Below are positions 1,077-32,605 of a stretch of 64,000 nucleotides of DNA, one piece after another (the stretch's first letter is position 1; every line of letters starts with the position of its first letter). A program made the position numbers and the translations under genes. The stretch lies in contig CAYNXC010000001.1 of the NCBI GenBank assembly GCA_964401135.1, positions 122,778 through 186,777 on the forward strand, in the 5' to 3' direction. This DNA comes from an uncultured Candidatus Saccharibacteria bacterium. Its GTDB lineage: Bacteria > Patescibacteriota > Minisyncoccia > Phycocordibacterales > UBA9988. Below the pieces are notes generated by a model that did no database searches, was not told the origin of the DNA, and saw nothing but the letters and a program-made list of their open reading frames with translations.

Positions 1077-1116
1077 ATCATTTCTGTGGGATTAGTAAGA
1101 AGGCTATTTGTCATCA

Positions 1117-1887: not shown

Positions 1888-2209
1888 AATTATTGTTACT
1901 GTGAATAATTAACTGTTGATAATGAAAGAACAATATTCATTGTACCCTCTTTTATTTCTTGATTCGACCAAGGCAATCAGACGAGTACCTCCAGGGAGTA
2001 CGCTTGAAGTTACCCTAGCCGCTATTATTGTCTTAAGGATAGCCATTGTCAACTCTATCGTCTCTTTGTCTAGAGGACAAAGTCTCCCTGCCTATTTCAA
2101 TAGGTCATTGTCCTTTACTTCAGACTTATCTTGTCTCACATTCTTTGTCTTTTATGCGTCCTATAGGACAAATTCAAATTTATACACACTATGTTATGAT
2201 AGATGGATT

Positions 2210-4369
2210 ATGGATGAACGGTTAAAAAAGCCGTACAACCCCGTAGAGAATGAGGAGAGCGCTTACCGACTCTGGGAGTCTAGTGGTTTTTTTAATCCAG
2301 ACAACCTCACGGGTAAGCGCGAGAAGAGCTACACCATCCTTATGCCGCCACCCAACGCCAACGGCCACCTCCATGTGGGACACGCCTTGGGCACTACCAT
2401 CCAAGATATTATGATCCGCTACCGCCGTATGGCAGGCTACAGAGCACTCTGGCTCCCCGGCGCTGACCATGCAGGCTTTGAGACACAGGTAGTGTATGAG
2501 AAGAAGTTAGAGAAGGAGGGTCGCTCGCGCTTAGGTATGCCACGAGAAGAGCTCTATAAAGAGATACTTGCCTTTACCTTAGAGAATAAAAAATTTATGG
2601 AGGACGAGGTACGCGCACTCGGCGCCTCCTGTGACTGGTCTCGTGAAAAATTTACCTTAGATCCAGATATTGTAGAAGTTGTATACGGAACCTTCCGTAA
2701 GCTCTTTAATGACGGGCTCGTTTACCGAGGCAAACGGATGGTCAACTGGTGTACCAAGCACCAAACATCACTCTCTGATCTAGAGGCAGCATCAAAAACA
2801 CAAAAAGATACACTCTATTACATTAGCTACGGGCCACTTACCGTAGCCACCGTCCGCCCCGAGACCATCTTCGGCGATGTAGCAGTTGCCGTACACCCAA
2901 GTGACACACGCTACAGAGCGCTTGTTGGCAGCACTATTACAGTCACCACTCCCATCGGCTCCATGGACTTGCCGGTGATTGCTGATGAGACAGTGGACAC
3001 AGACTTTGGCACCGGGGCACTTAAAATCACTCCCGCCCACGATCAAAACGACTTTGAGATGGGTAAGCGACACTCACTCCCTGTGACTGAAGTGATTGAT
3101 CAGTATGGGAAGTTGAATGAGAAAACAGGCAAATACGCGGGGATGAAGATTGACGAGGCACGGAACGCAGTTGCCAAAGACCTTGCGGAGATGGGGCTCT
3201 TAGTGAAGACAGAGGAGTACGAACACGCCGTGAGTACCTGCTATAAGTGTGCAAAGACTTTAGAACCACGCATACTCCCTCAGTGGTTTGTAAAAATGGA
3301 GCCACTCGCAGCTCGCGCGCTTGAGGCAGTACGGACAAAAGAAGTCACCATACTCCCCGACTACTCTGAAAAAGTATTTAATAACTGGCTCTCGGATATC
3401 CGTGATTGGAACATCTCCCGTCAGATTACATGGGGGATCCCTATCCCTGCCAAGATTTGTAGCGTCTGTGATTACGGCACTGCAGATACAGGACAGAGCG
3501 TATGTCCCGGATGTAGTAAAGAACTCGTGCCCGACCCAGACACCTTTGACACTTGGTTTTCATCTGGGCAGTGGCCATTTGCAACGCTTGGGCACCCGGA
3601 TGGGGAAGACTTCCACACCTTCTACCCCACGGCAGTCATGGAGACTGCCTACGATATTCTCTTCTTTTGGGTAGCGCGTATGATCATGCTCGGTCTCTAC
3701 CGTACTGGGAAGGCCCCCTTCAATCATGTGTACTTGCACGGACTGGTACGCGATGCCACGAGACAGAAGATGAGTAAGAGTAAGGGCAATGTGGTTAACC
3801 CCATTGAGCTCCTCACCCAGTACGGCACCGACGCCCTGCGCATGGGACTCATCGTGGGCAACACTCCGGGGACTGATTTAGCATTTTCTGAAGATAAGAT
3901 AAGGGGCTACAAGCACTTCGCCAATAAAATATGGAATGTTGCTCGCTTTGTGCTAGAGCGTATAGATGAATCTCCTCTCCATGAGAGACCAGAACTTACG
4001 CAGGAGGATGAGGCTCGCTTACAAGAACTCTCTGCGCTCACTCGTGATGTAAGCTCCGACTTGGATGAGTTCCGCTTTCATCTCGCGGGAGAAAAGTTAT
4101 ACCACTACTTCTGGCATACATTTGCTGATAAGATGGTGGAGGAGAGCAAGGTACAGCTGAAAGAAGGGACTGAGGAGGTGAAGCGCTCTACACGCTTTAC
4201 ACTACTCTCTCTCCTCTGTACCTCTCTGGTGCTCCTACACCCTTTTATGCCGTTTATTACCGAGACACTCTGGCAACTCATACCAGCCAAACTGCGCGTA
4301 CTCGTAGGATACCGTGAAGCGCTCCTTATGATTGCCCCATGGCCTCTCTCTCACTCGGAACTATCCTAA
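2210..4369 (+). CDS. valS: Valine--tRNA ligase. The ORF opens at 1916, but the conserved N-terminus starts at Met 2210.
   Basis: Motifs PPPNANGHLHVGHAL, DTWFSSGQWPFATLGHP and KMSKSKGN. It ends right after the anticodon-binding domain, with no C-terminal coiled coil. Confidence 0.85.
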   Translation: MDERLKKPYNPVENEESAYRLWESSGFFNPDNLTGKREKSYTILMPPPNANGHLHVGHALGTTIQDIMIRYRRMAGYRALWLPGADHAGFETQVVYEKKLEKEGRSRLGMPREELYKEILAFTLENKKFMEDEVRALGASCDWSREKFTLDPDIVEVVYGTFRKLFNDGLVYRGKRMVNWCTKHQTSLSDLEAASKTQKDTLYYISYGPLTVATVRPETIFGDVAVAVHPSDTRYRALVGSTITVTTPIGSMDLPVIADETVDTDFGTGALKITPAHDQNDFEMGKRHSLPVTEVIDQYGKLNEKTGKYAGMKIDEARNAVAKDLAEMGLLVKTEEYEHAVSTCYKCAKTLEPRILPQWFVKMEPLAARALEAVRTKEVTILPDYSEKVFNNWLSDIRDWNISRQITWGIPIPAKICSVCDYGTADTGQSVCPGCSKELVPDPDTFDTWFSSGQWPFATLGHPDGEDFHTFYPTAVMETAYDILFFWVARMIMLGLYRTGKAPFNHVYLHGLVRDATRQKMSKSKGNVVNPIELLTQYGTDALRMGLIVGNTPGTDLAFSEDKIRGYKHFANKIWNVARFVLERIDESPLHERPELTQEDEARLQELSALTRDVSSDLDEFRFHLAGEKLYHYFWHTFADKMVEESKVQLKEGTEEVKRSTRFTLLSLLCTSLVLLHPFMPFITETLWQLIPAKLRVLVGYREALLMIAPWPLSHSELS

Positions 4370-5046
4370 CTTTTATCTTAGGCGGGACCATCCCCGCGGT
4401 GATTTGGTTATGGTTTTGGCTCAAGGAGGATGCTGCGCGACCAGAGCCACGAAGCATCATTATTGGAACCTTCATTGCAGGGGCTGTCGCAACGATCCCC
4501 GCCTTTATTTTAGAAAAGTACACCCGTGACATTCTGGGGATGAGCAGTGGAGCGAGCTTATTTCTTATATGGGCGCTCATTGAGGAGACAGTAAAGTATG
4601 GGGCGGCTCTCTTGACTGCCGAGAGGACTAAAAGTTACGACGAACCTGTTGATTCAATGATCTATATGATGACAGCCGCGCTCGGCTTTGCTGCATGCGA
4701 AAACTTATTCTTTCTCATTGATCACAGTATGGATGGTATCGCTCTCCACGAGTTTTTGCTCGGCGGAAATCTGCGCTTCTTAGGTGCTAACATCTTACAC
4801 CCTATCGCCTCGGGTATTGCGGGTGGCATTATTGCCCTCGCTTTCTACCGCAGTACCGCAGAGCGTGCCTACGCTACCACTCTTGGACTTATCACCGCTA
4901 CAGTATTGCACACTATTTTCAACTTGCTTATAATACGGAGTAGCGGCGGAGGGATACTCGCGACATTTTCATTCTTCTGGATTGTTGCCGCGCTTGTCAT
5001 CCTCCTTTTTGAACGAGTAAAACGTATACAACCATATTATGTTTAG
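4339..5046 (+). CDS. PrsW-like intramembrane protease family membrane protein
   Basis: Multi-TM protein carrying IEETVKYG (an EExxK-like motif), GFAACEN and HPIASGIAGG motifs. Confidence 0.4.
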   Translation: MASLSLGTILTFILGGTIPAVIWLWFWLKEDAARPEPRSIIIGTFIAGAVATIPAFILEKYTRDILGMSSGASLFLIWALIEETVKYGAALLTAERTKSYDEPVDSMIYMMTAALGFAACENLFFLIDHSMDGIALHEFLLGGNLRFLGANILHPIASGIAGGIIALAFYRSTAERAYATTLGLITATVLHTIFNLLIIRSSGGGILATFSFFWIVAALVILLFERVKRIQPYYV

Positions 5047-5503
5047 ACGAAAAAGATCATTTTTTGAACGACTCACTGGGAGTATGGCTCTCGAGGATGA
5101 ATTGGATGATGCAAAAGATGGAGATGAGGATCGCATCAACTCACCGAGCCTTGGCTGGGAGCGCGGTGAGGAGATGAGTGACCTCTCTCTGGATCTTTAC
5201 CAGACACCAAATGAGATTATTATCCAGACAATGGTAGCTGGAGTGAAGCCAGAAGATTTAGATGTAAATATCACTCGTGAATCTGTAACGATCAGCGGTA
5301 AGCGGAGCGAACAAAAGCAGGTTGTAGAAGAGAGTTACTTCCTCCGTGAACTCTCATGGGGCTCTTTTGAGCGTACTATTGCACTCCCACAAGAAGTAGA
5401 GCCAGAAGAAGCTGAGGCTGTAGAACGCCATGGACTCCTCACCATCCGCCTCCCCAAGCTCAACAAAGACAAGACACAAAAACTAAAGGTACGGATTGGG
5501 TAG
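5039..5503 (+). CDS. Hsp20/alpha-crystallin small heat-shock protein
   Basis: DLYQTPNEIIIQTMVAGVKPEDLDVNI...GSFERTIALPQEV...GLLTIRLPK, an alpha-crystallin domain pattern. Confidence 0.8.
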   Translation: MFRRKRSFFERLTGSMALEDELDDAKDGDEDRINSPSLGWERGEEMSDLSLDLYQTPNEIIIQTMVAGVKPEDLDVNITRESVTISGKRSEQKQVVEESYFLRELSWGSFERTIALPQEVEPEEAEAVERHGLLTIRLPKLNKDKTQKLKVRIG

Positions 5504-6211: not shown

Positions 6212-6287
6212 TGGTGTCGAGAGCCGGGCTCGAACCGGCGACCCTTCGCTCTTCAGGCGAATGCTCTACCAACTGAGCTATCTCGAC
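6212..6287 (-). tRNA. tRNA-Phe (GAA), CCA encoded
   Basis: The reverse complement GTCGAGATAGCTCAGTTGGTAGAGCATTCGCCTGAAGAGCGAAGGGTCGCCGGTTCGAGCCCGGCTCTCGACACCA folds as a cloverleaf. The anticodon loop CTGAAGA gives GAA. Confidence 0.9.
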
Positions 6288-6339
6288 ATAATTTCACTAT
6301 ACTCCACCCGGCTCTCTCCTTCAAAGCGTCGAGGCTGAA

Positions 6340-6612
6340 CTACCTAGGCGTGAGGGCGCCATTGATTGCATTCAATTGGCTCTTAGTACTCTCTATCATC
6401 CCCGCAGCCAGATCCCACGCATCCATGACGCTGTTTATCTGCGGTTCAAAGTAGTAGTAGAGTCCCACAGATGAGCCAATGATGATCACCCACCTGAGTA
6501 CACTGAGAGAGATCCCCCAGAGTCGTGCGCGCTGGATAGATCGTAATATGCGATTATTCTCTTGAGCCAACTCAAGGGTCTCGTGTACCTCTTCTCGCAT
6601 ATCATGATCCAT
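6340..6612 (-). CDS. Hypothetical small membrane protein
   Basis: 90-aa ORF with one TM segment (VLRWVIIIGSSVGLYYYF). Confidence 0.3.
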   Translation of the reverse strand: MDHDMREEVHETLELAQENNRILRSIQRARLWGISLSVLRWVIIIGSSVGLYYYFEPQINSVMDAWDLAAGMIESTKSQLNAINGALTPR

Positions 6613-6682
6613 TATCCAATCGTAGCAGAGGGGGTACTAAAAATCAAAAGCCCTGTCCGCCTAAGGCAGGCAGGGCTCTACC

Positions 6683-7135
6683 TCACACCACTATTCGGTG
6701 GAGCAGGAGTAGTGTGAGTTCTTCCCAATCAGGAACGCAGTAAAATCGGTTTGGCAGTCCGTCATGGACTTGGGAACCGAAAAGCAGGCAGTGTGTAACC
6801 GAATCTGGCATCGCATCAAGAACATCAAAACGGTCGTCAATCATATGAGTGAGACCAATTTCCTGTGCGATCACAACTTTTTCCCACCAATGATTACAGT
6901 AGAGTGCATCCACTCTCTTGATGCCGGTTCGCGCCCAGAAATCCCTCTGTGAGAGCCATCGGTTTATAAACCATCGAGATCCTGACAAAGTCTGTGAGAG
7001 AAGATAGATATGGTCAAAACCAGCACAGGCATGGATGCGGGTAATATCCTCTATGGCTCCAGTGACTTCCACACTCCTTGGCCCACGAATGACACCGCCG
7101 ATGTCAATGCCGAGTATCCTAGACATTATGGACAC
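6683..7135 (-). CDS. Hypothetical protein (possible HAD-like or nucleotidase-like fold)
   Basis: The N-terminal ILGIDIGGVI and the later MIDDRFDVL loosely resemble HAD motifs. The match is weak. Confidence 0.3.
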   Translation of the reverse strand: MSIMSRILGIDIGGVIRGPRSVEVTGAIEDITRIHACAGFDHIYLLSQTLSGSRWFINRWLSQRDFWARTGIKRVDALYCNHWWEKVVIAQEIGLTHMIDDRFDVLDAMPDSVTHCLLFGSQVHDGLPNRFYCVPDWEELTLLLLHRIVV

Positions 7136-7196
7136 CTCCTTTCTTATATAAAGTACTCTCCTTTTAGCCTAGCAGACAAGAAAAATAAGACAACAA

Positions 7197-7268
7197 CGCC
7201 CTCGGCAGGAATCGAACCCACATCAACCCCTTAGGACGGGGCTGTTCTATCCGTTGAACTACGAGGGC
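7197..7268 (-). tRNA. tRNA-Arg (CCU), no encoded CCA
   Basis: The reverse complement GCCCTCGTAGTTCAACGGATAGAACAGCCCCGTCCTAAGGGGTTGATGTGGGTTCGATTCCTGCCGAGGGCG folds with a 7-bp acceptor stem, a D stem GTTC/GAAC and an anticodon loop GTCCTAA. The T stem has two G-U pairs. Confidence 0.8.
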
Positions 7269-7371
7269 TACTAGGCGAGATGGTGTTCATTTTTTGAGTC
7301 GCGCCGGAGCCCTTTAGGGTAAAGCGCGAAGAAAGAACACCACGAGCCTTACCTCACTATAACAGAATTAT

Positions 7372-7611
7372 CTAAGAGATTCCGAGGAGGTTAGCGAGGG
7401 TCGGCTGATCAAAGCCAATAACAATATCTTTTTTATCAACTACAATCACCGGTACACCCATCTGCCCCGTCTTCTCAACCATCTCTTGTCGCTTCGCGAT
7501 ATCGCTCATCACATCGTACTCGGTAAAGGCAACTCCGTTCTCGGTAAAGTATTCCTTTGCCCTATGGCAAAAGTGACAGGTCGGCGTGGTATATATCTCA
7601 ACAGTGTACAT
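7372..7611 (-). CDS. Glutaredoxin-like (NrdH/Grx) thiol-disulfide protein
   Basis: A CHFC (CxxC) active site near the N-terminus, 79 aa, thioredoxin fold pattern (GVPVIVVD). Confidence 0.8.
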   Translation of the reverse strand: MYTVEIYTTPTCHFCHRAKEYFTENGVAFTEYDVMSDIAKRQEMVEKTGQMGVPVIVVDKKDIVIGFDQPTLANLLGIS

Positions 7612-7657
7612 AAAAAAGGCGCTTAACGCTTGTAATAATTCTAGTATAGCATAGCTG

Positions 7658-7972
7658 TCAAATTAACGCTGAGAGATCATCTTCAGGGCGCGCTTTGGTA
7701 CTACGCTCCTCACCACAGCGTTCGCATTGATGGACAATCACAAAGGTATCTCGCTTTTTTTCTAATCGCGTAGGCGGCATTAGCCCTCCACACAGCTCCA
7801 GCCTATCGCCAGGAAACATATCCACATGTTTACTGGTGAGACACACGGGGCAGTGGTTGGTATAGCCATCCCCTGCCACCTGTGCTCCACAGCGTTCACA
7901 AGTAAAATCCTCCTTGGTGCGTTTGAATCGCTCGCTCATGTGCGGGTAGGGAGAATCGGACTCCCGTCTCAT
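7658..7972 (-). CDS. RNHCP-domain protein. The true start is probably Met-12, at 7939.
   Basis: Contains YTNHCPVCLTSKHVD, which matches the RNHCP signature, plus flanking CxxC pairs consistent with a zinc ribbon. Confidence 0.6.
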   Translation of the reverse strand: MRRESDSPYPHMSERFKRTKEDFTCERCGAQVAGDGYTNHCPVCLTSKHVDMFPGDRLELCGGLMPPTRLEKKRDTFVIVHQCERCGEERSTKARPEDDLSALI

Positions 7973-8016
7973 GCTTGGGAAGCACGCGTTCTACCACTAA
8001 ACCATACCCGCTCTAT

Positions 8017-14747: not shown

Positions 14748-15074
14748 GTATACATCCTGTACCGATAAGCCGAATTCTGTTCTCCGCTAGAGGCGGAGCA
14801 GTAGTTATGTATCTAGGTCCGCCGTCGCCGACAGACTCAAGCGACTCTTCCCAACACAAAGTCGGGACACGGTCTTGCACTCAAGGATAAGGATTTAGCC
14901 GTTTCAGCCGGACTGAACCGGGTCGTTTCTGTTCGCACCTCGCGCGTTACCGCGGGCGGGAGTTACCCGCTACCCTTCCACTGCACGCCGTAAAGGCGGC
15001 GTCAGGGCACGTGTTCGGACTTTCCTCCCCGACCTCTATTAGAGGGCCGGAGCAACTACTTGGTACAGGACTTC
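14748..15074 (-). ncRNA. rnpB: RNase P RNA (bacterial type A)
   Basis: Carries the P4/CR-I motif GGAGGAAAGUCCGAAC (reverse complement of 15015-15030), GGGUAACUCCCGCCCGCGGUAACGCG, and the 3' ACAGAAUUCGGCUUAUCGGUAC motif. P1 pairs 5' GUCCUGUACC with 3' GGUACAGGAU. An extended -10 TGGTATAAT sits at 15079-15087. Confidence 0.85.
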
Positions 15075-23704: not shown

Positions 23705-24577
23705 ATGCTGCTGAAAATTGACCTCAAAAAAAGCCCTGAGGAAGATATCGCCTTAATACACAGGTATTTTTTTGAGACAAAGACGGACCATTTTAAAAAA
23801 AGGATTCTACGATTCTACAAAACACTAGAAGACAAATTATCTACTGAGACTGAGGAAAATCACGCTCAAGTTATTGATAGTTTTTTTAAAGATATCTATA
23901 GAAATAAGGCGGAAGAAATAGAGACAATAGTGGATCAGAGCGAGAAAATCATTGATGAAGAATCAACACAGTGCTTGGGAGAACTGGCTAAATTGATGGA
24001 TTATGATACTGAGAAGGAAGAAATATTTATCGCAATACCAACATTATTACCCTTTTCCCCTTTTAATCGACCTATTTTTTATTTTTCTATTGTCTCTAGT
24101 CTATTTAAAGATGGAAAAAACAGCATATTAGATACTGCGATTCACGAGATATCCCACTTTCTCCTCTTTGACATCTTGGACGAATTGGAAATCAATCTGA
24201 ACGATACTCAGGAAAATAAAGACTTCCTCCATCTGTTTAAAGAAGCACTGACTGGGATGTTACTGTCAGAGAAAGAAATGAGTGAATGTCTTGGCATGAA
24301 AGAATACTTTGGAAATCCAGAGGTCCATAATTTAAACATCAAACTCGAAGACGGGAAGCAACTGGTATTTCGTGAATATCTACGTTCAATACTCCATCAG
24401 TACCGGCAACAAGATCTCTCCTTTCAACAATTTATTGCAGATACAATAGAGATACTCCGGCCAAAAGCAGAAGAATTCAGTAAGAAAAAAATATTTTGGA
24501 ATAAAAATGAGCAAAAAATATTAAATAGGGATGAAGAATTATCAAAAGAATACGGGCAACCTATTTTAATTCAGTAA
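23705..24577 (+). CDS. HExxH-motif protein, paralog 1 (putative metallopeptidase-like, function unknown)
   Basis: AIHEISHFLLF, then a shared FLHLFKEAL...LL region. Paralogous to 27993..29084 and 30518..31201. Confidence 0.5.
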   Translation: MLLKIDLKKSPEEDIALIHRYFFETKTDHFKKRILRFYKTLEDKLSTETEENHAQVIDSFFKDIYRNKAEEIETIVDQSEKIIDEESTQCLGELAKLMDYDTEKEEIFIAIPTLLPFSPFNRPIFYFSIVSSLFKDGKNSILDTAIHEISHFLLFDILDELEINLNDTQENKDFLHLFKEALTGMLLSEKEMSECLGMKEYFGNPEVHNLNIKLEDGKQLVFREYLRSILHQYRQQDLSFQQFIADTIEILRPKAEEFSKKKIFWNKNEQKILNRDEELSKEYGQPILIQ

Positions 24578-24756
24578 TCATAAAATAAAAAAGTGGATAC
24601 AATACTAGAGATTGTATCCACTTAATAGATTCAGGCAATGCTTTGACAGCTATGGTCACAGCTGTCGCAAGAGTGATCGGAGTCAGTATTGCAGTCTGTA
24701 TCACAGTCGGAACCGCAATCACCACATTGATTTGATGAACATTTCTAATAACATCG

Positions 24757-25002
24757 TTAACTAAGCAACGTTATCTCACTATCCTCAACCTTCCTCATCT
24801 CAAGTATCTCTTCTTTATTGAGGTCTAAGAAATCAATCACTTCATCATTTTTTGCGTTAAATCCTATCCTACATATAGAATCTTTCTCCCACATAAACAC
24901 GCCAACACACTTGTATTGATTGCCATCACTGCCCTGTATGAGTAATTCAACAACCGTGTTGTTTTCTGTATCGTTTCGATCATTGGGGATTATAGTAGTC
25001 AT
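24757..25002 (-). CDS. Hypothetical protein (81 aa), last gene of a small three-gene operon
   Basis: Overlaps the upstream ORF by 4 nt. No recognisable motif. Confidence 0.35.
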   Translation of the reverse strand: MTTIIPNDRNDTENNTVVELLIQGSDGNQYKCVGVFMWEKDSICRIGFNAKNDEVIDFLDLNKEEILEMRKVEDSEITLLS

Positions 25003-25571
25003 ACAATAGTGTGTATATCAGTGATAAACGCTTTGGGTATAATATAGTAGGTAGGCTTTCCATCAGGATGGTTTACCGCCGGAGCAGGATATGTTCGGAT
25101 AGTTTCTGGGTCTCTTAACACGATGTGATCATCGCACACGCTGTGAAGAATTCCTTCGGAATACATTGTGGAGCAATCTCCCCTCTCCGCATTGCCCACA
25201 TACACAACATCTCGCCAAGTAACTGCTACGCGTGACGATTCTTTTAGATTACTGGGGATGGTAATTTTGAAGTCTTTGCTTACAGAGAGTAGCGCGGAAT
25301 CAGGAATGACCAGTCCTTTTACAATAAAGCTGTCATCAGTCCCATCCTGTCTTCCTGATGCAGATACATTTTTTATAAAAGTAATAATGATGTTATCCCC
25401 ATTCTTTTTCACATACCCAAACGCCTCGTGTGGGGATAATTTGGTTTCGCCAACTTTCTCTTCAAAAAGGTAGTAGGCATCAATGTATTTGATTTTACAG
25501 ATTTCCTCCATAGGTTCATTATATAAAGAAAGCGGATAGGTTGGTACAAACCCTATCCGCTCGATGATCAT
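24999..25571 (-). CDS. Hypothetical protein (190 aa)
   Basis: ORF only. Sits 8 nt downstream of a small Ser/Asp-rich ORF. Confidence 0.4.
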   Translation of the reverse strand: MIIERIGFVPTYPLSLYNEPMEEICKIKYIDAYYLFEEKVGETKLSPHEAFGYVKKNGDNIIITFIKNVSASGRQDGTDDSFIVKGLVIPDSALLSVSKDFKITIPSNLKESSRVAVTWRDVVYVGNAERGDCSTMYSEGILHSVCDDHIVLRDPETIRTYPAPAVNHPDGKPTYYIIPKAFITDIHTIV

Positions 25572-25578
25572 GGTACTA

Positions 25579-25785
25579 TCAGCCGAAGATGGATTTCCAG
25601 AATCCAGTTGCTGCTTTGCCGGAGTCGTCGTCCCGAGGGAATGGTGTACTGTTCAGTGAAGAATTCCCCCTCTCAAACAATCCAGCATCGGTCGCATCAT
25701 CCCGAGCACTGTGCTCAGCAGAAGAGACTTTACCCAGAGAATCTCCGCTATGTGCAGAGGTATCTCCGTCTGTCCATTTACCCAT
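25579..25785 (-). CDS. Small Ser/Asp/Gly-rich protein (about 68 aa, from the ATG at 25785)
   Basis: AAAGGAAG sits 8 nt upstream of the ATG. The product MGKWTDGDTSAHSGDSLGK... leads the operon immediately after the HK stop. Confidence 0.35.
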   Translation of the reverse strand: MGKWTDGDTSAHSGDSLGKVSSAEHSARDDATDAGLFERGNSSLNSTPFPRDDDSGKAATGFWKSIFG

Positions 25786-25883
25786 AACGCCCACTTCCTT
25801 TCTACAAAGTTCAAGGCTCTGTACTCAGAAAATCTGAGTAGAAGTTACTAAACATAGTTTACACTAATCTACTATTTTGTCAA

Positions 25884-27551
25884 TTACCCCTTCTTCGCAG
25901 GGAGCTCCACAATAAAGGTGGAACCGGTACCGGCACCAGTACTCTCGGCCCAGATCTTGCCTTTGTGTGCCTCCACCATCTGCTTGGCCACATATAAGCC
26001 CAGACCGGTACCAGAGTAGTTGACCTTGCCGGCGTCATCGGCGCGGACAAACTTCTCAAAGAGCTTGTGCATCACCTCCGGCGTGAGTCCCACGCCGCTA
26101 TCCTTAATCGCAATGCGCACCTTAGCCTCGCCGTCGCTCACCTTTACTTCAATGGAGCCCGTGGGCGTGTACTTAATGGCGTTGTCGACAAGGTTAGAGA
26201 TCACCTGACTCAATTTACCCGGATCGGCGGTAATCTCATATTCCCCTTCCTCGGCAATAAAGTTGAGCGTGAGCCCCTTCTGTTCGGCGGAAACCTTCAT
26301 TGTAGAGACAACCTTCTCGACGAGATCCCTCACATTCAAGTTGGAAAACTCGTACTTCATCCGTCCCAGCTCAATGCGAGTGACATTCAAAAAATCTTCG
26401 ATCACCACCACGAGCCGCTGACTGGAGTCAAAAATATTTTGGAGCGGCTGGTGCATCTTCTCCCCCACCTCGCCGTAGGAGCCCTCCAGTAACATTGAGG
26501 TGTAGCCCTTGATGGCGGTTAAGGGGCTGCGCAATTGGTGCGAGGCAATGGAAACGAATTCCGTCTTTTGCCGATCCAATTCCTTGAGCTTGAGGTTTGC
26601 TGCAAAGAGACTGTCGTTCGCTTTTGCCAAGTCTCCAGCGAGTCGCTCAATGCGCTCGCGTTGCGCCACCTCCCCCTTTACGCTCCTAACCAGGATGTAG
26701 CCAAAACCGATGGCGATGATGAGGGTAATACCCGTGAGCACAATGTTGACCGGATTTCTCACAAAGAAGAACTCGGACGCAATGAGGATGACCAAGCCCA
26801 CCACCAAGGCCTGTGTGGCGAGGAGCTTAATGTTAAAGGCTTTGAACTGCACAATGAGGTACGCCAAGAAGCCCATAAAGACAAGCATCCCAAAGAGGCC
26901 GTACTGCTCCAATTCAAAGTTATCGATCGCGCTCGCCAAGTAGCCGGTAACGAAAAAGGAGAGGAGGAAGAGGAGCATCCCCACACCGAGCGGCACAATC
27001 TGCTTGCGTAGTGCTGGCTTGACCTTACGGTACCGCACAACAATGACCCTAAATGTCCAGAGCATGAAGATGAGCCCAAGGAGATAGTAGTAGCTCGTGA
27101 AGTAGTGCCCTTCGTGTACTTCACAGTTAGGGAGATCAAAATATTGGAGGTTCCATCTTGATGAGGCAAAGAGGATGACGGGGAGTAAAAGGATGGAGAT
27201 AATGAGCTTTGTATTAAACGAAATATCTTTTTTATCTATATACACATAGACGAAGTACAAACAGAGAGCATACAACAGTGAATACAACACTCCAAACGCC
27301 GGCCAGATAAACTGGATCAGACTAACATTATTATTAGTCCAAGCAATTAGGCTAAGAAAAGACCATAAAGAAAAGACTATTGAGATAGACACTAAAATAG
27401 TTCCGACTAAATTACGCGCACGCACAAAAACAAAAATCCCGATCAATAGTGAGACTATGACTGCGGGAATATGCGAATAATAGAGAAGCCCAGGAACAGA
27501 ATCTGAGAAGAATAAAAACTGCGGATTTGGAATATCGCTACAGAAGATCAT
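25884..27551 (-). CDS. Sensor histidine kinase with a large (about 7-8 TM) N-terminal membrane domain
   Basis: HisKA (IASHQLRSPLTAIKGYTSML) and HATPase_c (GTGLGLYVAKQMVEAHKGKIWAES). No response regulator is adjacent. Confidence 0.85.
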   Translation of the reverse strand: MIFCSDIPNPQFLFFSDSVPGLLYYSHIPAVIVSLLIGIFVFVRARNLVGTILVSISIVFSLWSFLSLIAWTNNNVSLIQFIWPAFGVLYSLLYALCLYFVYVYIDKKDISFNTKLIISILLLPVILFASSRWNLQYFDLPNCEVHEGHYFTSYYYLLGLIFMLWTFRVIVVRYRKVKPALRKQIVPLGVGMLLFLLSFFVTGYLASAIDNFELEQYGLFGMLVFMGFLAYLIVQFKAFNIKLLATQALVVGLVILIASEFFFVRNPVNIVLTGITLIIAIGFGYILVRSVKGEVAQRERIERLAGDLAKANDSLFAANLKLKELDRQKTEFVSIASHQLRSPLTAIKGYTSMLLEGSYGEVGEKMHQPLQNIFDSSQRLVVVIEDFLNVTRIELGRMKYEFSNLNVRDLVEKVVSTMKVSAEQKGLTLNFIAEEGEYEITADPGKLSQVISNLVDNAIKYTPTGSIEVKVSDGEAKVRIAIKDSGVGLTPEVMHKLFEKFVRADDAGKVNYSGTGLGLYVAKQMVEAHKGKIWAESTGAGTGSTFIVELPAKKG

Positions 27552-28069
27552 ATATTGTTAATTTTATCTGCAATGTATTGTTGAAAATATCCCTTATATT
27601 TTAACTGGAGCTCAGGAATTTTCCAATCTTCTCCTGTGATTTTAGAACGACAAGAGCTACTGCCACACTGACAATTCATCACATAAAATTGATCTCCTGA
27701 ATGAGCAACGGCCATTGCGTAATCAAAACAAATTTCTTCTTCTTCTTTTATTTTTTTGATTGCAATAAGGCGTATCTGTCCTAAAAATCCAGCATTTGGT
27801 TCACAAGAATGATTGAAGTAATCGGCTAATTCAGATTCACCACAAGAGGATAAGACAAAGTTGTCATCAATCTGAACTCCTGAATCTTTATGCTCCTGAG
27901 GCAGGATTGCTTCCTCCTCCAAGCTTAAGATATAGCCACCAAATAGAGCCAGTGTCTCATTCTTTTTTATATCTGCCTTTGCAAACACCCCTTTGCCATA
28001 CTCACCAGTCTCCTGCACCTCCAACTTTGGGCTCATCCACGAGAAGGGTCTCTGTTGTGCCGATGTCAT
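27548..28069 (-). CDS. SET-domain protein (putative protein-lysine methyltransferase)
   Basis: GKGVFA, NHSCEPN, EEICFDY and a post-SET CQCGSSSC. Its stop and the HK start overlap by 4 nt. Confidence 0.85.
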   Translation of the reverse strand: MTSAQQRPFSWMSPKLEVQETGEYGKGVFAKADIKKNETLALFGGYILSLEEEAILPQEHKDSGVQIDDNFVLSSCGESELADYFNHSCEPNAGFLGQIRLIAIKKIKEEEEICFDYAMAVAHSGDQFYVMNCQCGSSSCRSKITGEDWKIPELQLKYKGYFQQYIADKINNI

Positions 28070-28087
28070 ATCTCTCTATTGTAGCAC
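27979..28087. repeat. Copy A of a roughly 110-bp element repeated three times, covering the SET start codon and first 30 codons
   Basis: Near-identical to 32497..32605 and partly to 30433..30519. The conserved core is GTGCTACAATAGAGAGATATGACATCGGCACAACAGAGACCCTTCTCGTGGATGAG on the minus strand. Confidence 0.8.
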
Positions 28088-29084
28088 CTTCACAATAGGG
28101 GGAGAATCGGTATATACTGCCTCTATGCCAAATAGTTTTCGTATTAACAAATTATTCAATAAATTAATATTTATTGGAGAAATCTGCCAGATCAGAAACA
28201 ACCCTTGGAACAAAGAGCGGGTTGAACAGTGGCTAGCAGGCAATGGTGGTGCACTCTCTACAATTGAACAATCGTCAATAAAGAAAATCACTGATATAGC
28301 ATCAGAAGTAGGCATCAATCTCATTGAGGCTTATTTTTTGACCAAAGAGAATGAACAATTGTGGAATATTTTGGGACAAGAGATTGGAACAACTCACACG
28401 GGGGCAATTAAAGAAGTACTTGAGAATTTTTCTCATCGTTTTGACATCGTCTGGCAGAAAGAAGAAACGCATCTCATGAGAATAAGTAAATTTTTTAACT
28501 CACAATCAAAAAAAATAGAAACGGCATTAGCACAAGTAGAATCCCTCACAGGATTACAGAACAAAACAAAGCTCACTGACATACCCATACAGTTAGCAAT
28601 GAGCAGTGCAGAAGAGGATGATATTGTAGGATGGTACTCAACCTTTGAAGAAAAAACGGATCTTGTGCTGGAATGTTCTGGAGTAATTGAGAATAATTTC
28701 CCTTTTCTTGAAGCAGTGTTACTGCACGAACTGTTCCATCTTGCATTAAGAAGTCACTCTGTAGTGATGCCTTTGATTGTGAGTGTTGCTGATGAAAATC
28801 AAGACCTCCTCAGTCCCCTCTCTCAAGATATGCCGCCTTTCCAAATTCTTGAGGAGCTACTCATCAGTTCTTTTACTCCAGAGGGATACTTGGCAACAAA
28901 ATACTTTAACACCACGATAAGTATTGCGGAAAAAACTGACGAATCAGTGCTTCACAACTTCACATTGATCAGACGGCGGAGTGCTCACGCAATGAGAAAT
29001 CTGGCGAAAGAATATACGGATGAAAAAAAGTGCATAGATAAGATGTACTTAAACTCCCTCACTGAGACAATAAAAAACGGGTAG
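27993..29084 (+). CDS. HExxH-motif protein, paralog 2. An alternative start at 28125 would exclude the repeat-derived N-terminus.
   Basis: LLHELFHLAL and a shared downstream region. The first 44 codons are antisense to the SET N-terminus and repeat. Confidence 0.5.
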   Translation: MPYSPVSCTSNFGLIHEKGLCCADVISLYCSTFTIGGESVYTASMPNSFRINKLFNKLIFIGEICQIRNNPWNKERVEQWLAGNGGALSTIEQSSIKKITDIASEVGINLIEAYFLTKENEQLWNILGQEIGTTHTGAIKEVLENFSHRFDIVWQKEETHLMRISKFFNSQSKKIETALAQVESLTGLQNKTKLTDIPIQLAMSSAEEDDIVGWYSTFEEKTDLVLECSGVIENNFPFLEAVLLHELFHLALRSHSVVMPLIVSVADENQDLLSPLSQDMPPFQILEELLISSFTPEGYLATKYFNTTISIAEKTDESVLHNFTLIRRRSAHAMRNLAKEYTDEKKCIDKMYLNSLTETIKNG

Positions 29085-29122
29085 TGTATATGCACTACCC
29101 GTTATCGGGACCGAGTTGGAGT

Positions 29123-29248
29123 TTATTTCCTGTTGGCCCAGTGCCCTTTATCCCAAGGACCCTTGGCTTCGCCCTTGAGAGCTTGTTCTTTTGCTCGAAG
29201 TAATACTCGCGGAATTACGACTGATTTGCTTTGTTGAGAATTTTTCAC
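29123..29248 (-). CDS. Small ORF (41 aa, GTG start) just downstream of the radical SAM gene. Candidate precursor peptide.
   Basis: AAAGGAGGTGA lies 5 nt upstream of the GTG. The product is MKNSQQSKSVVIPRVLLRAKEQALKGEAKGPWDKGHWANRK. Below the ORF-track length cutoff. Confidence 0.35.
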   Translation of the reverse strand: MKNSQQSKSVVIPRVLLRAKEQALKGEAKGPWDKGHWANRK

Positions 29249-29287
29249 GGTAGTCACCTCCTTTCTGTCCTTAAGATCAATTCAATA

Positions 29288-30358
29288 TTACCCTACCAAT
29301 AAACCGTAGCTTATCAAGGTTTTCTGTATTTCTTCAAAAACTCTGAAATTTGCCGCGCAGACAGTATCTTTATTTCCATTCACATAATCTTTAAGACACC
29401 CACCGTGACAAAGAGTGTTCCATGGACAAGAAGTACATGCTGCTCTTGACCGTTGTGAGAGCTGGAGAAATTCTTGAAAATTGCTTCTCTCTACAACGTC
29501 ACTATAGGATTCCGTGACAGTTCCGAAACAAAAACAAGATTCGTTAAGTAAGCTGTCGCAAGGAAAGATTGACCCATCATTGTAGACAGTCACAAATTGA
29601 TCGCAGCGCCCCATGAGCGTACATTCACGGAATTCGCCGCCAAGAAGGATGTCAATGATGCTTTTGATATCACGAATTTCTAGATCAGGATTATCTATGT
29701 CAATCCAATGATGAAAAATCTTGATCAAAAAATCGGCGTACTGGTCTGCCGTGATAGCGTTTGAATCAGGTTCACGGATACGCAGGAACTTAATTGAATG
29801 GATATCACATGAGAGAAAAAACGAAATAATATCTTTTACCAAAGAGTAGTTTTGTCTTCCTATGCAACAGCTGACCCCGTTGAAAATTCCATTCTCTCGC
29901 AAATGAGTAATCCCACGGAGAACATCCTTGAGGTTCCCTTCCCCAGCACGAGAGACTCGGAGAGTGTCATGGATTACCGGCGGAGCATCAAGGCTTACCC
30001 CGACACAGAATTGTAATCCTGCAAACAACTTTGCCCATTCTTCATTGAGAAGGGTACCGTTTGTCTGCACAAAGTTTGCAATTTTTTTACCTTGGCGAAT
30101 CCATTCTGTCTGTAGCTGCCCAACAGCGCGATAAAATTGCATACCGGCAAGTAGTGGCTCACCTCCGTGCCAGACAAACTCAATTTCATCTTGATGAGAA
30201 CAGAAGAAATTAATGGTTGCTTGCAATGTCTCTTGCGACATTACTGCAGTAGATGACCGTTGTGGATCTAGAATTCCTCGCATGTAGCAATAACAACAAT
30301 TAAGGTTACATGCTCCATTCACCGGTTTAATGATGGGTACACTGAGTGGATTTCTCAC
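29288..30358 (-). CDS. Radical SAM enzyme with a C-terminal SPASM domain (peptide/protein maturase-like)
   Basis: CNLNCCYC (CxxxCxxC) N-terminal cluster. The C-terminal Cys cluster CTSCPWNTLCHGGC is SPASM-like. GTG start with a GAGGT RBS. Confidence 0.85.
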   Translation of the reverse strand: MRNPLSVPIIKPVNGACNLNCCYCYMRGILDPQRSSTAVMSQETLQATINFFCSHQDEIEFVWHGGEPLLAGMQFYRAVGQLQTEWIRQGKKIANFVQTNGTLLNEEWAKLFAGLQFCVGVSLDAPPVIHDTLRVSRAGEGNLKDVLRGITHLRENGIFNGVSCCIGRQNYSLVKDIISFFLSCDIHSIKFLRIREPDSNAITADQYADFLIKIFHHWIDIDNPDLEIRDIKSIIDILLGGEFRECTLMGRCDQFVTVYNDGSIFPCDSLLNESCFCFGTVTESYSDVVERSNFQEFLQLSQRSRAACTSCPWNTLCHGGCLKDYVNGNKDTVCAANFRVFEEIQKTLISYGLLVG

Positions 30359-30432
30359 GGGAGATACCTCGTTTCTTTATTATTTTAAAGGTTCAAATAT
30401 ATCTGGTATTTTTATACCACATTATTCAACTT

Positions 30433-30519
30433 TATGCAAACCTCAGCACTTCCACCTTAAGACTCATCCACGAGAACGGTCTCTGCTGTGCCGATGCCAT
30501 ATCTTTCTATTGTAGCACT
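30433..30519. repeat. Copy B of the element, forming a 22-codon uORF (30433..30501, minus) upstream of the radical SAM gene
   Basis: The uORF encodes MASAQQRPFSWMSLKVEVLRFA*, which is homologous to the SET N-terminus. It shares the junction TTTGCATAAAG...AATAATGTGGTATAAA with copy C. Confidence 0.7.
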
Positions 30520-31201
30520 ATCGGGAGTGAGGAGAAGATAACAGATTGAGTGATGAACTGACAAAAGCCTTCAGATCTTTACCGCTCTTTTCCCAGAGAA
30601 TTTGATGATGTTCTAGTGAGGTTTGTAAGTCGGGATAGAAGAGCTCTTCAGGACGACCAAGTACCACTTGCGCTTCAGGCTCGTTTAGGAGAATAACATT
30701 GAGAATTTCGGAGAGTTCCCACAATGGACCGCCATTCTTACTAAGATGTAGAGTTTCCTCCTTAAAATGCAGGTCAAGATATTTGAAGAAGACAAAGTGC
30801 AGGACCTCGTGGAACGCGACCTCAATGCGGTCCAGTAAATCTTTTTTATAGTAGACTTGGAATGTCTCGTCCTCCACAAAGCGAGGATTGCAATTAAATA
30901 TAGAGAGAAAACCTTTGTACTCGTGCGAGTGACTCTCCTCTCCAAAATAGTGGCGAGTGAAATTAAAGAATGTGGAGGATCGCTGGCCAAGCTCGTTGTT
31001 AGTCTCCTCAAGAATTTTGGCAAACTCTTGAGCATGAGCATCGTAAAATGAGTCTATGTACTGTGTACTATTCTCCGCAGTGATAGTGGAGTGGGCATCG
31101 CGAATCATCGCACCAAAATCGCGCCCAGCAACAGCAAAATTATGAAAATCGGTATAGGTTTCGTAATCCTGCTCTTTGTTCAATTCAATAGTAATCATCA
31201 T
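30518..31201 (-). CDS. HExxH-motif protein, paralog 3 (start at MMITIELNK; the ORF extends to 31291)
   Basis: AFHEVLHFVFF. An ATGA overlap with the upstream CYTH gene. Confidence 0.5.
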   Translation of the reverse strand: MMITIELNKEQDYETYTDFHNFAVAGRDFGAMIRDAHSTITAENSTQYIDSFYDAHAQEFAKILEETNNELGQRSSTFFNFTRHYFGEESHSHEYKGFLSIFNCNPRFVEDETFQVYYKKDLLDRIEVAFHEVLHFVFFKYLDLHFKEETLHLSKNGGPLWELSEILNVILLNEPEAQVVLGRPEELFYPDLQTSLEHHQILWEKSGKDLKAFVSSSLNLLSSPHSR

Positions 31202-31770
31202 TCCTTCTCCAATCCAGCCTGCACAAGTGCGAGATGCATCATCCCTATCGCCTCTGGTCGATCGGTGAGATTGAGGTGCGTGAGTATCCACTGCTTCAGT
31301 TCCCCTCTGATAGAATTACTCACCTCCTTGGGAACTTCTATCTCACACTCTATAAAGTATCGGTGTCCGTTAGAAAAAGTGAGGTCGTCAAGAGAAAATA
31401 CACAGGGGTAGGTAAAGAGCGTACCCGCAAAGTCGCGACGGGTTTTATGCAATGAGAGATGAGTCCCCTCTCCCTGTAACTCTGTCAATTCATCCGCCGT
31501 GCTCGCCCCTTCTACTTCGCGCCGCATCCGTTCTCCTTGCTCGTTTAAATACCATGTTTTTTCTGTTTTTTCGTAGTCCGTCCCGTTGTACACTCTAATA
31601 CGGGTAAAGTCCCATCCTTTGTCATCAAATTTTTTGAAATGGAAATAATGATCGCCTAACGATGACTCCTTACTCAAGGGGTACCCGAGAGTTGGGAGTG
31701 CTTCAATACAGTGTGCATACTCCTCTGTATTCAATTCCAATTTAATCTCGGTCTCAATGTGGTCTTTCAT
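31198..31770 (-). CDS. CYTH-domain protein (class IV adenylyl cyclase / triphosphatase fold)
   Basis: N-terminal ETEIKLEL (the ExExK signature of CYTH). Confidence 0.55.
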   Translation of the reverse strand: MKDHIETEIKLELNTEEYAHCIEALPTLGYPLSKESSLGDHYFHFKKFDDKGWDFTRIRVYNGTDYEKTEKTWYLNEQGERMRREVEGASTADELTELQGEGTHLSLHKTRRDFAGTLFTYPCVFSLDDLTFSNGHRYFIECEIEVPKEVSNSIRGELKQWILTHLNLTDRPEAIGMMHLALVQAGLEKE

Positions 31771-31830
31771 TATTGTATTTGTTTTTAATAAAAACGACTG
31801 AATAATGATCCTTATTCAGTCGTTGGTATT

Positions 31831-32424
31831 TTAGACTAGTTGGATTTTTTCTACAACCTCGTCCAAAGTTAGGTTTGTAGTATCGATTACAATTGGATCA
31901 AAAAGTGTTCTTGCATAATTAACCATAGCCTCTTCCATCCGTAAGAAGAAATCTGGATCCCGTATTACTTTTAAGTCATTCACGGTAACTTTTTCTGGTG
32001 ACTCTTTCATCCTTTTTCGAAGCCTTATCCTCCTCTCTTCAAGACTGGTAGTAAGAATGTAGACGCCTGTAAACCTAGGATGAAGTAAAGCTAAAGCCTC
32101 CAATCTTGCAAGAATCACGCTGAAATGAGCGGCGGCATGATAGGCGAGCGATCGTAAAAGAATTGTAGAGTCTTGGATTGTCGCTGAAATTGGCCAAGAA
32201 AAACGTTTCAGGTCATATTCTAACGCCTTCGCGTAAAGATACCCGATCCATTCAGAACCATCTTTTTCGATTTCTTTTGCAACTTGCAGAATATGATTAC
32301 TACCCAATAGAGATGAATGGCGGACCGTATAGTTTGGGTTGAGATGGTGAAGTCTTCGGATAACACTGGACTTTCCTGAAAGATCTATTCCTTCGACTAG
32401 ATAATACGGGACAGGTTTTTCCAC
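31831..32424 (-). CDS. P-loop kinase, thymidylate-kinase-like
   Basis: Walker A EGIDLSGKSS, then IQDSTILLRSLAYHAA (compare Tmk DRY..SS.AYQ). GTG start. Confidence 0.5.
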   Translation of the reverse strand: MEKPVPYYLVEGIDLSGKSSVIRRLHHLNPNYTVRHSSLLGSNHILQVAKEIEKDGSEWIGYLYAKALEYDLKRFSWPISATIQDSTILLRSLAYHAAAHFSVILARLEALALLHPRFTGVYILTTSLEERRIRLRKRMKESPEKVTVNDLKVIRDPDFFLRMEEAMVNYARTLFDPIVIDTTNLTLDEVVEKIQLV

Positions 32425-32496
32425 TTTTCTTTCCTCAAAAATCTAAGTTTTTTCAAGAGCCATGCTCTATTCCATTTATACCATATTATTTGGCTT

Positions 32497-32605
32497 TATG
32501 CAAACACCCCTTTGCCATACTTCCCCGTCTCCTGCACCTCCAACTTTGGGCTCATCCACGAGAACGGTCTCTGCTGTGCCGATGTCATATCTTCTATTGT
32601 AGCAC
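32497..32605. repeat. Copy C of the element, forming a 30-codon uORF (32496..32588, minus) upstream of the Tmk-like/CYTH/HExxH operon
   Basis: The uORF encodes MTSAQQRPFSWMSPKLEVQETGKYGKGVFA*. The listed 63-aa ORF 32476..32667 lies in a different reading frame. Confidence 0.75.

Follow-up and report, generated by a model that had tools for sequence, protein, structure and literature searches.

We examined a stretch of 64,000 nucleotides (nt) from an uncultured Candidatus Saccharibacteria bacterium (contig CAYNXC010000001.1, positions 122,778 to 186,777), which is referred to here as the window. On its minus strand, a gene for a radical S-adenosylmethionine (SAM) enzyme with a SPASM domain is followed closely by a small open reading frame (ORF), and a gene for a protein with an HExxH motif converges on this pair from the plus strand. 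The small ORF quite probably encodes the precursor of a peptide that is synthesized ribosomally and then modified post-translationally (a RiPP). The three genes would form a RiPP module of Patescibacteria, also called the candidate phyla radiation (CPR), whose chemistry may be the linking of Trp to the Cβ of a nearby residue in cyclophane rings. The locus is organized as follows.

29123..29248, minus strand: precursor peptide gene, GTG start, 41 amino acids plus stop
29254..29264, minus strand: Shine-Dalgarno sequence AAAGGAGGTGA of the precursor gene, then CTACC (5 nt) and the GTG at 29248
29189..29212, minus strand: leader motif P13-R-V-L-L-R-A-K20, putative maturase recognition sequence
29126..29158, minus strand: core P31-W-D-K-G-H-W-A-N-R-K41, with W32-D-K34 and W37-A-N39 as candidate cross-link sites
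29288..30358, minus strand: radical SAM/SPASM peptide maturase, 356 amino acids, GTG start, without an N-terminal RiPP recognition element (RRE)
30411..30439, minus strand: promoter-like site preceding the maturase gene, TTGCAT, 17 nt, TGg-TATAAA (putative extended -10)
29069..29103, minus strand: terminator closing the maturase-precursor operon (hairpin and tail at 29103-29076), 11-bp stem with 6 G-C pairs, loop of 6, then TTTTTATT
28125..29084, plus strand: accessory HExxH metalloprotein gene, 319 amino acids, HELFH at residues 201-205 (DNA 28725-28739)

The precursor frame runs from the GTG at 29248 to AAA-TAA, with its stop codon at 29125-29123, and its product is MKNSQQSKSVVIPRVLLRAKEQALKGEAKGPWDKGHWANRK. 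It begins 39-40 nt past the end of the radical SAM gene (ORF 30358-29288). An initial annotation of this DNA, made from the sequence without database searches, had described the Shine-Dalgarno sequence 5 nt before the GTG, the 41-residue product and the gap of ~40 nt, and all three were reproduced from the sequence. A 44-residue reading from an in-frame GTG at 29257 was rejected. Because that codon lies within the Shine-Dalgarno sequence and homologues have ATG at the position of 29248, translation is assigned to the downstream start. The exact decamer AAGGAGGTGA occurs at four sites in the window, compared with 0.11 expected, and none of 100 shuffled sequences reaches four. At least two of these sites are located 5-7 nt upstream of an ORF start, namely 29254 (the peptide) and 35217 (a 294-residue ORF).

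A strong intrinsic terminator, which the initial annotation did not mention, starts 19 nt past the precursor stop codon on the minus strand, and the stop codon of the convergent HExxH gene falls inside its hairpin. At the other end, the promoter-like site at 30439-30411 does not appear in our consensus scan because its -35 hexamer fits only three of six positions. The maturase gene and the small ORF thus look like a two-gene operon between this site and the terminator. The HExxH gene could also be read from a TTG at 27993, but this longer reading overlaps a SET-domain gene, so the ATG at 28125 is the likelier start.

Conservation and translation of the small ORF

Relatives of the maturase were collected from a database of 5.8 billion proteins, from 185,000 species genomes, from JGI metagenomes and from contigs carrying specific proteins. 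About 60 of them form a clade that is 37-62% identical to the window enzyme, after which identity drops to the ~30% of ordinary anaerobic sulfatase-maturating enzymes (anSMEs). All named clade members are Patescibacteria/CPR, including Parcubacteria, metagenome-assembled genomes labelled Saccharibacteria, Minisyncoccia and Ryanbacteria. We counted the 21 clade loci that have sequence downstream of the maturase (L001-L005, L081-L094 and L096). A small ORF is present ~30-50 nt past the maturase stop codon in every one of them. All of these ORFs have the AAAGGAGGTGA box with its GGAGG spaced 8 nt from the start codon, and their stop codons are followed by a hairpin and T-run. A hidden Markov model (HMM) of the peptide matches all 21 loci, and also L153, with E-values of 1e-14 to 1e-27, and it gives no match among 143 anSME-like outgroup loci. 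Conservation of a small ORF beside radical SAM homologues had been set beforehand, in the initial annotation, as the observation on which its proposal would stand or fall; the proposal stands, since every one of the 21 clade loci has the ORF and none of the 143 outgroup loci does. When the look-up was reversed and started from the peptide, the same module was found on four of five contigs, and the contigs of P0125 and P0126 carry the maturase, the peptide and the convergent gene in this order.

The last 11 codons of the precursor gene exist in 15 distinct DNA versions, in which Pro and Gly use all four of their codons, and Asp, His and Asn use both, while the encoded residues remain unchanged. 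From this exclusively synonymous variation in the core it follows that the frame is translated and that strong purifying selection acts on it. Together with the linkage and the reverse look-up, the codon pattern supports the initial assignment of the ORF as the precursor peptide of the adjacent radical SAM/SPASM enzyme. It also decides between a translated ORF and the 3' untranslated region of the maturase gene, since the substitutions reveal selection on the protein. A spurious ORF in an untranslated or terminator region, or within a structured RNA, would be short and might well begin with GTG, as this one does, and the region folds better than shuffled sequences (z = -2.7), mostly owing to the terminator hairpin. 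However, frame, Shine-Dalgarno sequence and stop codon are kept in 21 loci whose DNA has diverged, the Rfam scan of the window finds no family at the precursor locus, and the independent samples from many studies exclude an assembly artefact. The chance that the ORF is spurious is therefore close to nil.

A full HMMER scan of 1.84 billion representatives produced 68 matching clusters, nearly all of 35-87 residues. Only seven called products came up in a word-seeded search of 5.8 billion protein clusters, in keeping with the initial expectation that automated annotation would miss the ORF. The identical 41-residue product is nevertheless present in the protein database as P0121. Neither Pfam nor NCBIfam assigns the window peptide to a family.

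With the database matches and the uncalled ORFs from the loci combined, the precursor family comprises 80 distinct sequences. A leader with P-x-V-L-x is found in 75 of them, typically as PKVLLQAKKEA, and the family motif is P-x-V-L-L-x-A-K. In alignment A3, residues P13, V15, L16, L17, R18, A19 and K20 are invariant, and even diverged relatives retain related leaders (for example, VPEVLLAAAKDA in L095). The C-terminus reads W-D-x-G-H-W-x-N-R in 78 of the 80 precursors and is usually followed by one basic residue. Among these 78, the first Trp is preceded by Pro in 74 and followed by Asp in 77; Asn lies two positions past the second Trp in 76, and Arg follows that Asn position in all 78. By comparison, position 34, the second after the first Trp, is Lys in 53 sequences, Gln in 18 and Glu in 4, with Arg, Asp and Asn once each, so that Lys is replaced in 25 of 78.

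Many precursors carry additional units of the same kind. In 40 of the 78, between one and four further Trp-x-x units lie upstream, most often WDK (40 instances) or WEK (8), with a few WNN, WSK, WNK, WDR and WGK. The unit that repeats with constant spacing is W-x-(K/N/Q), mostly WDK, WEK and WAN, and Lys itself is not required. Within the upstream repeats the W-x-K spacing is fixed, whereas the spacing from Lys to the next Trp varies (KAW, KGPW and KGHW). Ser or Cys occurs within the last 11 residues of only seven of the 80 precursors. One 57-residue member, P0189, has Arg codons in place of both core Trp codons (...KPWDKGHRDKGHRDKGHRANRK) and a triplicated GH-R-D-K unit. This Trp-less variant possibly reflects a change of TGG to CGG or AGG, or else an assembly artefact.

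The maturase and the HExxH protein

Pfam recognizes only the radical SAM core of the maturase (Radical_SAM, 8.6e-16). Alignment to the solved anSME structures 4K36-39 pairs the motif C17xxxC21xxC24 with the corresponding anSME cysteines, and likewise C246, C252, C267, C308, C311, C317 and C321. C334 lies at the edge of the alignment, is near-invariant in the clade and would suit the last position in the seven-Cys SPASM motif for two auxiliary clusters. Each of these Fe-S cysteines, C334 included, is invariant or nearly so in the clade, and the Asp beside the third auxiliary Cys C267 (D268) matches D277 of anSME. Thus, the neighboring enzyme is a radical SAM/SPASM protein, as the initial annotation had held. 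The core begins directly at residue 17, which leaves no N-terminal extension that could hold an RRE. The public gene call P0001 (331 residues) starts 25 codons late and drops the CxxxCxxC motif, and homologues of 355-358 residues span the full 356-residue reading from the GTG at 30358.

Among curated NCBIfam models, the maturase reaches no cut-off, including those of anSME, DynA, DarE and the recognized families of enzymes that form three-residue cyclophanes (3-CyFEs). Its best match is the anSME model TIGR03942 (245 bits against a cut-off of 349), followed by DynA (214 bits against 450), whose alignment spans profile positions 3-353 of 356. DarW and DarE follow with 154 and 148 bits against a cut-off of 650. 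The cyclophane models score lower still: YhhB 141 bits (cut-off 445), GrrM of the GrrM/OscB group 137 (310), AmcB 127 (425), FxsB 116 (370) and XyeB 102 (450), and PapB falls among these matches. For all 28 clade members tested the models rank in much the same way, and anSME and DynA always lead. The 25 best NCBIfam matches include no streptide-type model, and the PqqE and MftC models are likewise missing from the best matches. When solved structures were searched with the clade profile, anSME (4K36-39) scored 270 bits, the triceptide synthase ChlB 139 and CteB 101. Judged from these scores, the maturase is an unnamed branch between anSME and the daropeptide and triceptide synthases, two groups that have been argued to share an origin (PMC12912966).

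The likeness to anSME extends to sequence, solved structure, Fe-S cysteines, the D268/D277 pair, length and domain order. However, the CPR clade holds together at identities of at least 37%, in contrast to ~30% with true anSMEs, and the score of the maturase stays below the anSME cut-off. Moreover, the conserved core of the linked peptide has no Cys/Ser-x-Pro/Ala-x-Arg motif, no sulfatase domain was found among the neighbors scanned, and the module contains no sulfatase gene. On grounds of the substrate, we rejected an anSME function for this enzyme.

The resemblance does lend something to a reading in which the ORF encodes a genuine co-transcribed small protein, perhaps regulatory or chaperone-like, and the enzyme acts elsewhere. 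The anSMEs modify large proteins, the pairing of enzyme and peptide is read from gene linkage, and one locus (L169) keeps the peptide without an adjacent maturase. Against this, adjacency is strict at all 21 loci, the type of precursor co-varies with the maturase subclade, the leader-plus-core architecture fits a RiPP precursor, and both the Cys/Ser-x-Pro-x-Arg sulfatase motif and a sulfatase gene are lacking. We consider a non-substrate role very improbable.

The HExxH gene occupies the same position in L001-L005. Its profile was found in 38 of 165 fetched loci, including some whose maturases are only 29-35% identical to that of the window. The protein belongs to no Pfam or NCBIfam family, and 16 homologues share the invariant residues H201-E-x-x-H205, E243-E244, R283, Y297 and Y308. 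A confident AlphaFold2 model (predicted local distance difference test score, pLDDT, 89; predicted template modelling score, pTM, 0.88) begins with a half made of helices, after which come a sheet of three strands, the helix with HExxH and, further on, a helix that bears the Glu pair. The model may represent a distant zincin-like fold, perhaps akin to gluzincin-type metallopeptidases, in which the HExxH helix follows a small β-sheet and a later helix supplies a Glu. Foldseek found no significant match to this model in the PDB, and the HExxH profile found nothing among PDB chain sequences, even at E = 10. We conclude that the protein represents a new family of presumed HExxH metalloenzymes tied to this maturase clade.

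HExxH enzymes of RiPP clusters either hydroxylate Asp or His inside a pre-formed cyclophane or cleave the peptide oxidatively or hydrolytically (PMC12636437). The α-ketoglutarate (aKG)-dependent HExxH enzymes (ChlH, BpmH and PflC/PosC) resemble our protein in having HExxH, possibly on a comparable zincin-like fold, and in their genetic link with a radical SAM enzyme of cyclophane type. Hydroxylation by ChlH targets Asp and His in a pre-formed cyclophane (PMC12636437), and both residues are invariant in the core described here. Unlike those enzymes, however, this protein has no significant sequence match to them: the aKG-HExxH model TIGR04267 (IPR026337) gives E = 0.06 and 13 bits against a cut-off of 40, in one of 16 members. 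An O2-dependent enzyme would also be a surprise in CPR bacteria, a group commonly viewed as living by anaerobic fermentation. Weak Pfam hints point toward Zn peptidases (DUF5700 at 2.9e-4, SprT, M48 and M50). A leader peptidase seems somewhat more likely than an oxygenase.

More distant loci with a maturase and an HExxH gene also carry small ORFs, preceded by Shine-Dalgarno sequences, beside the maturase. The cores that they encode are different and rich in Trp-x-x. In L095 the precursor is upstream of the maturase and has the core ...VSWNKGPGDPYPWNKK, with the unit WNK. L099 has ...GGWSDNWNDGPNHSDSWSDSGWPLKR with WSD and WND, and L100 has ...GWDDQWLNWDKLDDEDDGHGWGDIGD with WDD, WLN and WDK. 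L116, L122 and L136 have ...DAWQQWSDWDNGHADS, ...QWDGEWTEWEDVNYP and ...GWNNWPDWDNGPDFPNWEDIGG, respectively, and WDNG occurs in L116 and L136. Read in this way, the Trp-x-x precursors that this enzyme pair appears to serve make up a larger set, and the window family is a cationic branch within it. L100 (Ga0315285_10000001, 135-5119) carries the module twice in tandem, in each case with a convergent HExxH gene after the maturase, and has a 68-residue Trp/Asp-rich ORF after the first maturase and a 54-residue ORF (...EPIWDVDWDNGVDHSHSD) before the second.

Proposed cross-links and competing readings

Triceptides are defined by links from an aromatic residue to a Cβ on Ω1-X2-X3 motifs (PMC11499958), and darobactin contains a link from Trp C6 to Lys Cβ across W-S-K (PMC10125368). 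Several features of the module recall the triceptide systems (XyeB, GrrM/OscB, YhhB, FxsB, ChlB, HtkB and MicB). In both cases the SPASM maturase is ~360 residues long and has no RRE, and aromatic-x-x motifs lie near the C-terminus of the precursor, here as W-D-(K/Q/E...) and W-(A/S/T)-N in 78 of 80. The Pro directly before the first cyclophane motif of the triceptide precursor MicA, the one precursor examined for this feature, has its counterpart here in 74 of 78. Finally, an HExxH protein is associated, as it is with ChlB/FxsB-type enzymes (PMC11499958, PMC12912966), and ChlB is the second-best solved relative of the maturase. In contrast to the triceptide systems, the maturase scores 102-141 bits against their model cut-offs of 310-450 and is closer to anSME, the HExxH partner is encoded by a separate convergent gene without a match to TIGR04267, the core is almost invariant, the hosts are CPR bacteria, and the cross-link is a putative one.

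The darobactin and dynobactin systems offer a second comparison. DynA is the second-best curated model and aligns end to end, the substrates of these enzymes are C-terminal cores that contain Trp, and the dynobactin core WNSNVHSYRF, like PWDKGHWANRK, combines Trp, Asn, His and a basic residue. However, the scores lie far below the cut-offs of those models, the precursor family and leader differ, and the core, which is not of the WNWSKSF or WNSNVHSYRF type, has no W-x-W motif for an ether bridge. In addition, DarBCD-type transporter genes are absent, the only conserved neighbor is the HExxH protein, and the hosts are not Gammaproteobacteria.

On these analogies, maturation might proceed as follows. 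The peptide's N-terminal portion, centered on P-x-V-L-L-x-A-K, would serve as the leader, and because there is no RRE domain the maturase would presumably bind it directly. A 5'-deoxyadenosyl radical would take the Cβ hydrogen from the third residue of each W-x-x unit (K34 and N39), and the resulting carbon radical would add to the indole of the Trp two residues upstream (W32 and W37). Re-aromatization, with the auxiliary clusters accepting an electron, would leave a C-C bond. PWDKGHWANRK would thus receive two three-residue cyclophanes (W32-K34 and W37-N39), each with a mass change of -2 Da, and relatives with extra WDK or WEK repeats would receive more rings. The HExxH protein would then act on the modified peptide, most likely as a metallopeptidase that cuts off the leader close to the conserved Pro preceding the first Trp, or alternatively as an aKG/Fe HExxH oxygenase with the invariant Asp or His as its target for hydroxylation. 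A small and rigid peptide, cationic and rich in Trp, would result. Because only a β-CH2 would be needed in this mechanism, the third residue could be Lys, Gln, Glu, Asn, Asp or Arg. The mechanism would also account for the fixed W-x-x spacing alongside the variable distance from Lys to the next Trp.

The cross-link could instead run in the direction known from streptide, in which a residue N-terminal to Trp gives its Cβ to the indole. Here this would create four-residue rings from K29 or G30 to W32 and from K34 to W37. Both K-G-P-W and K-G-H-W are present in the window peptide, and sequence by itself does not fix the direction. Streptide (StrA/StrB/StrC), WGK/tryglysin and WPR peptides are likewise small ribosomal peptides with C-C links between Lys or Arg and Trp made by radical SAM enzymes; StrB forms a bond between Lys Cβ and Trp C7, and WgkB links Trp and Lys (PMC11851443). 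Some members of our family contain WGK (L002). The initial annotation had drawn this analogy, marked as conjecture, from a K-x-x-x-W spacing. That spacing is absent, and Lys is separated from the next Trp as K-x-x-W. Position 34 is another residue in 25 of 78 precursors, the residue two before Pro-Trp is mostly Gly, the Lys that precedes it is not conserved, and it is the W-x-K spacing, not that from Lys to the following Trp, that is constant. Moreover, the enzymes for those peptides carry or need an RRE and sit in quorum-sensing operons, whereas this maturase lacks the N-terminal extension of the 430-470-residue maturases that bear an RRE and has its affinities elsewhere, with no streptide-type model in the top 25. 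The K-x-x-W spacing, the variable Lys, the W-x-(K/N/Q) repeat and the affinities of the enzyme therefore make triceptides, darobactin and dynobactin a better analogy, and Trp-to-Cβ cyclophanes of that type appear to fit better than a streptide link. We regard the streptide direction as unlikely, and the initial analogy calls for revision.

Several observations weigh against the proposed cyclophane module. The type of cross-link, its sites and even its formation are deduced from homology and motif logic. The maturase falls below the cut-off of every curated family and is closer to anSME, a Cys/Ser oxidase, than to any characterized cyclophane synthase. The core is near-invariant across deeply diverged lineages, which is unusual for antimicrobial RiPPs, and genes for transport, for immunity or for a dedicated protease from a known family are missing from the conserved module. 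In L097 and L098, whose maturases are ~34-35% identical to that of the window, no recognizable precursor was found. At L169 the precursor is accompanied by a frameshifted HExxH gene but no maturase lies upstream, the only exception of this kind that we saw. At that locus (ERZ27247228 k141_278324, 222-2179), the precursor has its own promoter-like TTGACA-17-TATCTT, and the cluster could be decaying or rearranged.

The frozen core and the small size of the module also bear on a different kind of product. PqqE and MftC are SPASM-domain radical SAM enzymes, and the invariant C-terminus could yield a cofactor or other physiological molecule in the manner of PQQ (PqqA/PqqE), mycofactocin (MftA/MftC) or the Trp-derived quinones. 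A core that is almost invariant across maturases only 37-45% identical is typical of cofactor precursors and atypical of antimicrobial cores, and two Trp, one His and one Asp are invariant here; a minimal module of maturase, peptide and one metalloenzyme, with neither transporter nor immunity gene, would also suit such a pathway. However, half of the precursors have one to four extra W-x-K repeats, unlike single-site cofactor precursors, and distant relatives with the same enzyme pair have differing, acidic, Trp-rich cores that suggest diversification of a natural-product kind. The neighborhood has neither a conserved partner dehydrogenase nor other conserved tailoring genes, the distribution of the family is patchy (68 representative clusters), and, as noted, the PqqE and MftC models are missing from the best matches of the maturase. 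A cofactor of this sort is quite improbable.

A broader possibility is that the anSME-like enzyme and the HExxH metalloenzyme constitute a CPR-specific system, new in both chemistry and role, that would turn the almost invariant P-W-D-x-G-H-W-A-N-R tail into something other than an ordinary three-residue cyclophane. The product might instead be a cross-linked or oxidized chromophore derived from Trp and His, a cofactor, or a ligand of fixed shape, with a conserved role in the episymbiotic lifestyle. We give this reading a minor but real share of the probability, because the core is invariant, the module is minimal and export and immunity genes are lacking. If it were true, the product may serve host attachment or attack, or redox chemistry otherwise lacking in these bacteria.

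RiPPs modified by radical SAM/SPASM enzymes and carrying aromatic cross-links are well known, and new RiPP families are found regularly, but this one shows unusual conservation and comes from hosts whose known secondary metabolism is scant. What is new is the combination of a maturase branch close to anSME, a PWDxGHWANR core that does not vary, a novel HExxH partner encoded separately and confinement to CPR. Public records label these proteins "hypothetical" or "radical SAM protein," and Pfam, NCBIfam and the sequences of solved structures do not list the peptide, the maturase clade or the HExxH protein as a described system. No paper containing core strings such as WDKGHW was found in the searchable full-text literature. 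A search of that literature for triceptides, RiPPs or SPASM proteins in Patescibacteria/CPR did not turn up a description of the system, which may correspond to an unnamed node in the 2022 triceptide landscape of ~3,900 pathways (Sugiyama, JACS).

Retention of a three-gene module with a frozen core across genomes labelled Parcubacteria and Saccharibacteria points to a function that is important to its hosts. CPR/Patescibacteria have tiny genomes and mostly resist cultivation, and to our knowledge few natural-product pathways have been described for them; a 41-residue peptide with two enzymes is a handle on their biology that can be synthesized. For enzymology, the system offers a maturase clade between anSME and the darobactin, dynobactin and triceptide synthases, and a new HExxH protein family that may consist of peptidases or of oxygenases. 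For annotation, it illustrates a precursor gene that most pipelines miss and a maturase whose start is miscalled in the public record, with loss of CxxxCxxC.

Surrounding DNA

The genes upstream of the maturase in the window (w257, a CYTH-domain gene and a kinase-like gene) were considered as parts of the module and rejected, as they have no counterparts in L001-L005 and the upstream genes of relatives differ. The G+C content is 0.40-0.42 across 24000-32000, which includes the module and its neighbors, compared with ~0.50 in the rest of the window, a composition like that of an island.

A 94-nt direct repeat is present in three copies (27980-28073, 30411-30504 and 32499-32592), of which the second and third are 95% and 69% identical to the first. 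It represents the SET-domain gene's 5' end (MTSAQQRPFSWMSPKLEVQETG...). The second and third copies, truncated pseudo-starts with ORFs of 22 and 30 residues, closely precede two minus-strand operons, that of the maturase and that of the kinase-like and CYTH genes. An adjacent 31-nt repeat (family D2; 30411-30441 and 32475-32505) carries the promoter-like TTGCAT-17-TATAAA, and its second copy precedes the next operon on the minus strand. The pattern gives the impression that gene cassettes were inserted or duplicated in the SET gene's 5' region.

Two further ORFs in the window contain HExxH, at 23705-24577 on the plus strand (AIHEISH) and at 30518-31291 on the minus strand (AFHEVLH). A relationship of the two with the accessory protein as paralogues is not supported (hhalign probability ~2%). 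Neither belongs to a Pfam or NCBIfam family, and they resemble each other weakly (27% identity, E = 3e-6). The true start of the minus-strand ORF is probably near 31200, past the CYTH stop codon. A perfect 13-bp hairpin at 31793-31824, between the CYTH-domain and kinase-like genes on the same strand, scored as a terminator whichever strand was read.

The minus strand of the window also encodes a bacterial class A RNase P RNA at 14750-15071, with 103 bits against a gathering score of 100. The genes for tRNA-Phe, tRNA-Arg(CCT) and tRNA-Gly(CCC) lie on the same strand at 6212-8011.

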